Virus record (IMG/VR): IMGVR_UViG_2711768059_000007
Direction: 5' to 3' (one strand)
Source of the DNA: a virus
Taxonomy: Duplodnaviria; Heunggongvirae; Uroviricota; Caudoviricetes
DNA length: 4,380 nucleotides
Under the pieces are notes generated by a model that searched no databases, was not told the DNA's origin, and worked only from the letters and a program-made list of their open reading frames with translations. This document shows positions 1,201-4,380 of the stretch, one piece after another. Both the position numbers and the translations under genes were made by a program. Position 1 is the first letter of the stretch. Each line of letters begins with the position of its first letter.

Positions 1201-4182
1201 TCAGCTGATACTGATACCTGCTGTGGATTTCTTCATCACCACAACCAGCAGATCGCTGATACTGGTTGTTGGTGTCCAGTCATTCGCTCCTGATGAAGAT
1301 ACGGTGAATGTCAGTGTCAGCGTCCCCTGTCCGGCAGGCATATCTATAACTGAGGAAAATACGCCCTGAACATCCGTCGTGGACTGATTAAAAATCTCCT
1401 GACCATTGCGGGTCACTCTTAACCGGCAGGTTGAATACCAGTATGACTGTTGGTTATTACTGTTGAAATTCTCATGCTTACCACCGCGGAATAACACTGG
1501 CGGTATCATGACCTGCCGGTCAAATTTCTGATCATCACTGATTCTTACCGTGATGGTGCCGCTGGCATAAGTGCTCGTGCGGGGGAAAGACTTGCTGACC
1601 GTTTTGACAATATCGCCTTCAATCTGGTTGGCTGACAGTTTCCCCTTAATCTGACAGTTCTCATTAATCGTGACGTTGTTGAGCGTCCCGGAGTTCGCAT
1701 TCACACTGCCACTGATATCCGCATTTTTAGCGGTCAGCTTTCCGTCCGGTGTCAGGGAAAATGCCGGTGGATTTCCACCGCTGGTAATGGTGGGGGCCGT
1801 CAGGCGCTTCAGGAACACGTCGTTCATGAATATCTGGTTGCCCTGCGCCACAAACATCGGCGTTTCATTCCCGTTTGCCGGGTCAATAAACGCGATACGA
1901 TTGGCGGCAACCAGAAACTGGCTCAGTTTGCCTTCCTCCGTGTCCTCCATGCTGAGGCCAATACCCGCGACATAATGTTTGCCGTCTTTGGTCTGCTCAA
2001 TTTTGACGCCCCACATGGCATTCCACTTATCGTTAGCATCCTTCCACTCTTTCGAAAACTGCTCCAGTTTGCTGGCGTTATCCTCCGTCAGGTCGACTTT
2101 TTCCAGCAGCTCCTTGCCGAGATGGGATTCGGTTATCTGGCCTTTGAAAAAATCCAGGTAACCTTCCGCATCATCGCTCGCCCGACCGACGGCCTCCACA
2201 AATGCCGATTTGCCAACGGTGTTCACACTGCGGATATAAAAGTAATAATCATGGCCCGGTTTGATATTGATACTGGCGGCTATCCAGTACAGCGCCGTAC
2301 CAAGATAGCGGGCTGTGGTTTCAACCTGCCTGATATCCGCAATCCGCTTTTCCGAGAACCAGAACTCAAACTGTACCGTCGGATCATAAACCGCAAGATG
2401 CGGCGTGGCGGTTATCTGAAAATAGCCCGGCGTCAGCTCAATCCGAGACGGCGCTGCCGGTGCGGCAATCCGGAACGATACCGATGCCGGATCGCCCTGC
2501 TGTCCCCACGCATTTACCGCCCGGACTGTCAGCCTGTAGTTCCCCAGCGCCAGTTGCGTGAAGCGGTATGTGGTTTCCGCCGTCCGGGCCGTGCTGACCA
2601 GCCGCTCACTGCCGTCATCCGCTGCCACGGTCAGGCGAAGCAGGAAACTCACGCCCTTCACCACCTTCGGCGTGTCCCAGCGGGCCAGTACCTGATACTC
2701 CCCGCTGTCTGCGGTGACTTCGGCAGTCAGGTGCTGCACCGCGGGCGGCGTGACACCATTCACCGTGCCGCTCTGGTCGCCGTCAAAGTGCGCCCCGTTA
2801 TCCACGATGGCTTCTTTTTCCGGTACATGCTGCACGGCAGTGATGGCATACGTGCCGTCATCGTTCTCACGGATACTCACACAGCGGAACAGGCGCTGGC
2901 GCAACGTCGGCAACTTCAGCCCCCATACGCTGTATCCGGCAACGCCGTCAGGAACACGGCTCACTTTTACCTTCACGCCGTCGGTGACGGACTGGACCTC
3001 CACGCTGACCGGATTGCCACTTCCGTCAACCAGGCTTATCAGCGTGGTACCGGAGGATGGCAGCGTGATTTCACGGTCGAGCGTCAGCGTCCGGGTCTGG
3101 CTGTTCACCGCCAGCACGCGCCCGCCGGTGCTGATACCGGCATAGTCATCATCGCAGATTTCAATGACATCGCCCGGCACATGGCGAAGCCCTTCTGCGC
3201 CCACGCTGAAATCCACGGTCTGCGTTTCCAGCAGTTCTGTTTTAATCAGCCACAGCCCGGCGCGATGTGCCTGCCCCCGGCTGGTACAGCCAAAGGCATC
3301 CATCTTCGTGACGTTACGACCGTAACGGGCAATGGCCTGCGTGTCCTCCACAAGCTCTGTCGCCGTCTCCCAGCCGTTATTCGGGTCAATCCAGTTCACC
3401 TCAACGGCATTATGGCGGTCCTTCAGGGCGCTGAAGCTGTAGCGGAACGGCGCGCCATCATCCGGCATCACCACATTACTGCGGTTATAGGTCCACACCT
3501 TATCTGATGGTCGGTCCTGCACGAACGTCAGCGTCTGCCCGTTCCATACCGGCATACAGCGCATCGCCGAGCAGAAATCACTGAGCACATCCCACGCCTT
3601 GCGCTGTGTGGTCAGCCAGGCATTACAGGTGATGCGCGGCTCCGTGCCGCCAAAGCCGTCCGGCACTGACTGGTCGCAGTACTGGCCGATGACATACAGC
3701 GCCCATTTATCCACATCCGCCGCACCAAGACGTTTCCCCATGCCGTAGCGCGGGTGGGTCAGCATATCCCACAGACACCAGGCCATGTTGTTGCTGTATG
3801 CCGGTTTAAACGTTCCGTCCCAGATACCGCTGTATTGCCGCGTCTGCGGGTTATAGTTCGACGGCACCTGCAGAATGCGCCCGCGCAGATGATAATTACG
3901 GCTCACCTGCTGGCTGCCGAACTGCTCCGAATCCACCTGCACGCCGACCAGTGCCGTGTTCGGGTAGCCCTGTTTCACATCGATGATTTCGGTGTATGAC
4001 GACCAGAGCGTTTTGTTCTGCAGCTGGTCTGTGGTGCTGTCCGGCGTCATCCTGCGCATCCGGATATTAAACGGGCGCGGCGGCAGGCTACCCACCACCA
4101 CCGAGGCCAGATACTGCGAGGTGGTTTTGCCCTTAATGGTGATGTCTTTTTCCGTCACCCAGCCACCGTTACGTTGGTGTCC
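1201..4182 (-). CDS. J: Tail tip / host specificity protein J (central fibre protein), 5'-truncated; the upstream end is bounded by adapter sequence, not by a real start codon
   Basis: The minus-strand ORF 1201..4266 from the track is collinear with lambda J, from my recollection, from ...[27 protein letters not shown]... through the central conserved region (…[25 protein letters not shown]…, …[24 protein letters not shown]…) to a C-terminus …[10 protein letters not shown]. Stop is TGA at 1203..1201. J-like sequence begins at about codon 31 of the track ORF (nt ~4176). The track start at 4266 is a TTG inside artefactual sequence. The roughly 110 N-terminal residues expected for a lambda-type J are absent. 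Confidence 0.9.
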
Positions 4183-4245
4183 CTTATACACATCTGACGC
4201 TGCCGACGATCTACACGGGGGAGATTTTGGTGGTCGTCGTGCGCA
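4183..4245. other. Illumina Nextera adapter read-through (ME + read-1 adapter reverse complement + index-like 8-mer + degraded P5 reverse complement); non-biological
   Basis: Plus-strand 4177-4209 gtgtcccttatacacatctgacgctgccgacga matches CTGTCTCTTATACACATCTGACGCTGCCGACGA at 31/33, with 4183-4209 exact (27 nt). Then comes 4210-4217 tctacacg (index-length spacer). Then 4218-4245 ggggagattttggtggtcgtcgtgcgca resembles GTGTAGATCTCGGTGGTCGCCGTATCATT (P5 reverse complement) with errors typical of a low-quality read tail. Confidence 0.85.
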
Positions 4246-4380
4246 TAAAACAAAAAAATTAATCAATATATTCCTTCGAGCAATACTTTCATAGATGAAT
4301 TAATCGCTGCAAGGCGGAGGGCAGAAAACGTTAGCTCACAGAGGAAAGTAAATAGCTCAAGGCGACGAGAAGTGAATGTT
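4246..4380. other. Sequence of uncertain origin distal to the adapter; probably a low-quality read tail or chimeric join, not phage J sequence
   Basis: No minus-strand frame encodes anything J-like here. The J-frame has a stop at 4302..4300. The plus strand is A-rich then purine-rich (caaaaaaattaatcaatatatt…, aaggcggagggcagaaaacg…, gaggaaagtaaatagc…, aaggcgacgagaagtgaatg). Confidence 0.4.

Follow-up and report, generated by a model that had tools for sequence, protein, structure and literature searches.

The virus record IMGVR_UViG_2711768059_000007 is a stretch of 4,380 nucleotides (nt) that was analysed at its full length and is called the window below. Its minus strand carries an open reading frame (ORF; 4266..1201) that starts with TTG, encodes 1021 residues and consists for the most part of gene J, which encodes the phage tail protein gpJ. 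We consider it almost certain that the N-terminus of this ORF is an assembly artefact, and that the last 204 bases of the contig come from an untrimmed Illumina Read 2 of a short-insert Nextera library. A sequence-only reading of this DNA had already described the ORF as chimeric and the residues before residue 31 as artefactual, and the adapter match, the position of the junction and the alignment with gpJ agree in bearing this out. Beyond the adapter, the contig runs to its end in noisy base calls from djlB, a chromosomal gene of Escherichia coli.

Junction between gene J and the adapter

At the protein level, ORF residues 31–1021 correspond to residues 142–1132 of the gpJ protein WP_216316041.1, with 988 of 991 positions identical, and lambda J aligns with the ORF in the same register as this protein. 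The sequence-only reading had predicted that the alignment would begin at ORF residue 31, which was exact, and near lambda residue ~115, which was not: it begins at J residue 142. Comparison of the minus strand of 3900–4380 with 50,697 phage records by megablast placed the boundary at the same site, all matches beginning at window position 4176 or 4177. Phage PhiR30_1 was 100% identical from the junction onward, and the match to lambda (J02459) covered bases 15928–16204; given the annotated span of lambda J (15505..18903), codon 142 opens with base 15928. Homology to phages as well as to E. coli ends at window position 4176.

The 5′ part of J that has been lost comprises 141 codons (423 nt). 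The earlier proposal that the real gene extends further 5′ in native genomes thus holds, and its estimate of about 110 codons was too low by about 30. Six gpJ domains (FNIII-A_GpJ, Phage-tail_3, Ig_J, Ig_J_second, Phage_Tail_Tip and Ig_GpJ_C) were found, all above the Pfam cut-offs; the match to FNIII-A_GpJ covers only profile positions 61–125 of 126, the absence of the first 60 marking the N-terminal truncation. Full-length gpJ of ~1132 residues has the conserved N-terminus MGKGSSKGHTPREAKDNL, while in the ORF residues 1–141 are replaced by 30 residues translated from adapter and noise. These J residues are absent because the contig ends, and not because of biology.

Adapter sequence beyond the junction

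The 33-nt Nextera string CTGTCTCTTATACACATCTGACGCTGCCGACGA occurs once in the window, on the plus strand at 4177–4209, with 31 of its 33 positions identical (two mismatches) and 26 nt exact at 4184–4209; no such match appeared in any of 200 dinucleotide-preserving shuffles. For the whole construct, the reverse complement of T10 spacer, P5, 8-nt i5 index, Read-1 tail and mosaic end was set ungapped on 4177–4256 (Table 1). Because the canonical adapter order fixed the offset in advance, no correction for multiple offsets was needed. The sequences of Tn5ME-A (TCGTCGGCAGCGTCAGATGTGTATAAGAGACAG), of the mosaic-end oligo and of the P5 primer (AATGATACGGCGACCACCGAGATCTACAC together with the Read-1 tail TCGTCGGCAGCGTC) are given in PMC7402673, and two or more of these sequences occur in 402 papers. 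For grafted P5 oligos, a 5′ T10 spacer is documented by PMC13584795 and PMC11123353.

The mosaic end directly adjoins the insert DNA and is followed, without a mismatch, by GACGCTGCCGACGA, the reverse complement of the Read-1 tail; this identifies the i5 side of the library molecule and not the i7 side. The construct closes with P5 and an A10 run, and the same succession was also found in three other public records. The A10 run is the surface end of the template, and nothing beyond it is templated by that molecule. The leading codons of the ORF had been read as reverse-complemented adapter and P5 sequence initiated at a TTG. This is correct for codons 4–30 and for the use of TTG, and incorrect for the TTG itself and codons 2–3, which are djlB-derived noise.

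Noisy djlB sequence at the contig end

The tail at 4257–4380 aligns with djlB without gaps at 101 of 124 positions (81.5%, E = 3e-24), up to the last base of the contig, which rules out random junk. The match at 81.5% recurs in more than 4000 genomes, and none of the 5426 complete E. coli genomes gave a better one. All 23 mismatches are transversions, and 18 of them exchange A with C or G with T; even with an expected share of transitions of only one third, their complete lack has a probability of ~9e-5. A and C, like G and T, are dye pairs that share one laser in four-colour Illumina chemistry. The mismatches are spread evenly over the codon positions (9/7/7), 11 of them are A calls, and two in-frame stops are created. 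The tail is therefore E. coli djlB with ~18% sequencing error, and a divergent djlB orthologue, which was considered as a candidate, is ruled out by the same features. The genuine part of the contig, when compared with its closest relative, E. coli WS0115A, differs at 18 sites, mostly by transitions (13 transitions and five transversions), so that the tail is unlike ordinary divergence and rather resembles sequencing error.

The djlB signal does not begin where the adapter ends. When the djlB alignment was extended upstream into the adapter without gaps, the djlB base was found at 11 of the 13 departures from the canonical adapter and A10 sequence, in the same register (binomial P = 2e-4); the 60 other registers compared (−30 to +30) gave 0–7. 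Both mismatches of the mosaic end (4177 and 4182) and eight of the ten mismatches of P5 are djlB bases in register. The adapter "errors" are thus likely to be djlB bases in cycle register, and we infer that two templates were superposed in one Illumina cluster, mixed or overlapping. A public GenBank record has probably preserved this superposition base by base, with djlB taking over from the J template at its end.

Proposed origin of the artefact and alternative explanations

The succession of mosaic end, GACGCTGCCGACGA, i5 index and reverse complement of P5 is what Read 2 of a paired-end run contains when the insert is shorter than the read. In the scenario that we favour, a short-insert library made by Nextera (Tn5 tagmentation) would have been sequenced and Read 2 left untrimmed. 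The read would leave the J insert at 4176 and pass through the mosaic end, Read-1 tail, i5 index, P5 and A10, where its template ends. A second template, a djlB fragment, would have given signal in the same or an overlapping cluster throughout these cycles; with the J template dominant until A10, this signal would first be seen as occasional adapter "errors," and after the end of the J template djlB would be the only, noisy source of base calls. The minus strand of the resulting junk is by chance open, in frame with J and endowed with a TTG, so that an ORF finder or gene caller reports a protein of 1021 residues. The sequence shows the identity of the adapter, the site of the junction, and the djlB origin and error signature of the tail; the mixed cluster and the assignment to Read 2 are inferred.

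Three points weigh against this scenario. The scenario is built on the assembled sequence, in which neither the read support of 4177–4380 nor a mixed cluster is directly visible. Assemblers usually clip such low-coverage tips, whereas 4177–4380 survived. Finally, the index CGTGTAGA is not known to match any Nextera i5 index; the nearest would tentatively be N504 (AGAGTAGA), at six of eight positions.

Among the alternatives, the one that survives best concerns only the tail past the adapter, which could represent a chimeric library molecule or an assembler misjoin, through the poly-A, of a read running from J into the adapter and a separate djlB read. The contig does join two unlinked loci, the J prophage and djlB, and poly-A is a low-complexity k-mer able to bridge reads. 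However, a separate djlB read would be expected to be nearly 100% identical to E. coli, whereas the best match found carries a pure-transversion signature at the identity given above. Moreover, neither a join at the poly-A nor a chimeric library molecule accounts for the djlB bases that are found, in register, within the adapter and as far as 80 nt upstream of the poly-A, or for an 18% error rate made up of transversions only, and the A10 run complements the surface spacer, past which library molecules never extend. We therefore regard this explanation as very improbable and retain the mixed cluster.

A biological N-terminus, whether the J of the prophage were a real pseudogene (truncated or fused) or carried a novel N-terminal extension, has next to no chance of being the correct explanation. 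The ORF is open and in frame over 1021 codons and has a possible TTG start, but the 90 nt at its 5′ end are synthetic Illumina oligo sequence in canonical order. The 86-nt stretch at 4177–4262 has matches in four of the 5426 complete E. coli genomes and in no case at a J gene; the sequence-only reading had held that homologous J proteins with the same N-terminus in finished genomes would speak against an artefact, and none was found at J in this set. The same stretch matches 77 phage records from unrelated hosts, including Vibrio, Bacillus, Klebsiella, Acinetobacter, Listeria and Pseudomonas, a spread that is expected of a laboratory reagent and not of a gene. Several of the listed phage matches lie near record ends; of two records inspected, one had the match near its end and one in mid-record.

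It is equally hard to credit an insertion in J, of natural Tn5 or of an engineered mini-Tn5, whose real transposon end is the mosaic-end-like sequence: the 19-nt mosaic end is indeed Tn5-derived, and the weak match in E. coli CV601 described below could be such a case, but position 4177 onward agrees with the synthetic mosaic end at 17 of 19 positions, compared with 14 of 19 for the Tn5 outside end and 13 of 19 for the inside end (counted by hand), and what follows the 19 nt is the Illumina Read-1 tail (14/14), index, P5 and A10, and not a transposon body. The CV601 match (NZ_CP067994.1, 474668–474748, within acrS; 73% identity to the adapter stretch, E = 0.2) might be a mini-Tn5 end in this tagged laboratory strain, or due to chance.

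Table 1. Features of the 4,380-nt window and origin of the codons of the 1021-residue ORF
Feature	Position	Strand	Remarks
Tn5 mosaic end (CTGTCTCTTATACACATCT)	4177..4195	+	Insert/adapter boundary; 17/19, binomial P = 6e-9
Reverse complement of Nextera Read-1 tail (TCGTCGGCAGCGTC)	4196..4209	+	14/14 exact, P = 4e-9
i5 index slot	4210..4217	+	Reads TCTACACG = index CGTGTAGA; position fixed by flanking adapter parts
Reverse complement of P5 flow-cell adapter (GTGTAGATCTCGGTGGTCGCCGTATCATT), degraded	4218..4246	+	19/29 at the offset predicted from the adapter order, P = 5e-6
A10 run, complement of T10 spacer on surface-grafted P5 oligo	4247..4256	+	9/10, P = 3e-5
Noisy base calls from E. coli chromosomal gene djlB	4257..4380	+	Unrelated to prophage; runs to contig end
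TTG start codon of chimeric ORF	4264..4266	-	Spurious; inside djlB-derived noise
Codons 1-3 (TTG ATT AAT)	4266-4258	-	djlB-derived noise
Codons 4-7	4257-4246	-	One noise base (4257), spacer complement, P5 end
Codons 8-16	4245-4219	-	P5
Codons 17-19	4218-4210	-	Last P5 base (4218) and index
Codons 20-30	4209-4177	-	Read-1 tail and mosaic end
Codons 31 onward	4176 down	-	J codon 142 onward
Gene J fragment (tail tip attachment / host specificity)	1201..4176	-	Codons 142-1132 and stop; genuine
lom, Ail/Lom outer-membrane beta-barrel protein, 199 aa	535..1134	-	Genuine, complete
stf, side tail fibre, 5′ part (first 156 codons)	1..470	-	Genuine prophage DNA, cut by contig end

Prophage genes of the contig

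Window positions 1–4176 are 99.6% identical, over 100% of their length, to E. coli WS0115A (NZ_CP035882.1), which carries, after an intact gpJ of 1132 residues, an Ail/Lom gene and a gene for a tail fibre N-terminal domain. The synteny J-lom-stf of lambdoid tail modules is found in the window. The lom product matches Pfam PF06316 (Ail_Lom) over profile positions 1–199 of 199 (E = 6.7e-121) and is annotated in the same way in NZ_CP035882.1. The stf fragment matches PF08400 (phage_tail_N) over positions 1–134 of 134 (E = 1.4e-73), and its counterpart in NZ_CP035882.1 is annotated as prophage tail fiber N-terminal domain protein. Downstream of lom, the stf gene of NZ_CP035882.1 is annotated as incomplete, with its C-terminus missing, and IS66-family genes lie immediately downstream (locus region 7190–9176). 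Repeats or insertion sequence elements may explain the contig break at position 1, which falls in the same stf gene.

The C-terminal part of J differs from that of two related proteins, a lambda-like J cluster representative (P0002) and a partial J (P0014). Upstream of the last ~190 codons the J fragment is 90–100% identical to P0002 or P0014, while over the last ~190 residues (window 1201–1770) the identity falls to 42–44%, which suggests a different receptor-binding type. The C-terminus of P0002 is presumably lambda-like. The same C-terminal variant of J is present in phages Turner, 2H10 and PhiR30_1, which are 96–97% identical to the whole contig at the DNA level. The DNA of J, lom and stf is ordinary lambdoid prophage sequence and presents no biological novelty.

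The chimeric product and the adapter string in other records

The exact 1021-residue product is on record from a single contig, CXYE01000066.1 of the draft E. coli assembly GCA_001269025.1 in GenBank (coordinates 1–4380, reversed), so that the window is the whole of this contig; its rarity, one contig among ~15 billion proteins, is a further argument against a biological N-terminus. A literature search found no publication for the assembly (CXYE01, GCA_001269025), and one on adapter contamination of assemblies yielded nothing of sufficient specificity. In the collection of these ~15 billion proteins the chimeric sequence has neither accession nor name, and it falls into a 90%-identity cluster of 25,550 members, the representative of which is a host specificity protein J of 1132 residues.

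Natural short forms of J were sought in the same cluster. The candidates of 1024 residues proved to be tape measure proteins that do not visibly resemble J (judged by eye, not aligned), and P0014 (1019 residues) is a partial J that a contig edge interrupts. The presence of the two 1024-residue members annotated "phage tail tape measure protein" (P0005 and P0012) in a J cluster may be a quirk of clustering or look-up.

The Nextera string was also observed in other public records. In NZ_CP071328.1 (E. coli strain 4114, RefSeq complete) it lies at 3147805–3147866, between yibL and a DUF3251 gene, and reads mosaic end, Read-1 tail, reverse complement of an index (ATTAGACG), P5 and poly-A; this is probably adapter contamination in a "complete" genome. 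The record of Escherichia phage ev017 (NC_049948.1, RefSeq) ends in an adapter string at 50019–50103, with the index reverse complement ATAGAGAG and then A11. Its hypothetical protein YP_009909637.1 (locus 617..387, minus strand) starts inside the mosaic end and spans the junction of insert and adapter, and is the same kind of chimeric coding sequence as the ORF of the window. In Acinetobacter phage TAC1 (MK170160.1) a back-to-back adapter pair lies in the middle of the genome (~22590–22735): the first adapter is a read-through with the index reverse complement TCTTACGC, P5 and A10, and the second comprises part of P5, the index GCGTAAGA, the Read-1 tail and the mosaic end. A 24-nt genomic stretch, duplicated, flanks the pair, which lies between two coding sequences that both bear the annotation tail fiber protein; the first of these runs on into the pair.

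Significance

The value of these observations lies in data hygiene and quality control only. The 1021-residue product is already a called gene in a large protein collection and could pass for a J that is truncated, a pseudogene or fused to a novel N-terminus; elsewhere, the same adapter string lies under or between annotated coding sequences, including those of a RefSeq phage and of a RefSeq complete E. coli genome. Nextera read-through artefacts belong to the class that adapter and vector screens are meant to catch, and the degradation of P5 by the signal of the second template provides a plausible reason why a screen could miss this adapter. If the superposition of two templates is real, degraded adapters missed by contamination screens can carry a recognisable footprint of the second template, and this footprint may be used for their detection. 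The occurrence of such a footprint in a deposited contig is slightly unusual, and it is a technical point only.

Comparison with known systems

With lambda gpJ (1132 residues) the ORF shares the gpJ Pfam domains, the gene order J-lom-stf and the collinearity of its residues from 31 onward; it differs in lacking the first 141 residues.

In the other part of the chimera, the closest parallel is the Illumina Nextera read-through contamination of deposited assemblies. The window has its canonical order of mosaic end, Read-1 tail, 8-nt i5, P5 and A10, and the same construct is seen in NC_049948.1, MK170160.1 and the complete genome NZ_CP071328.1. In contrast to such contamination, P5 in the window is degraded to 19/29 in a non-random manner, the "errors" being djlB bases in register, and the junk shares the reading frame of a large real gene, which results in a plausible-looking product of 1021 residues.

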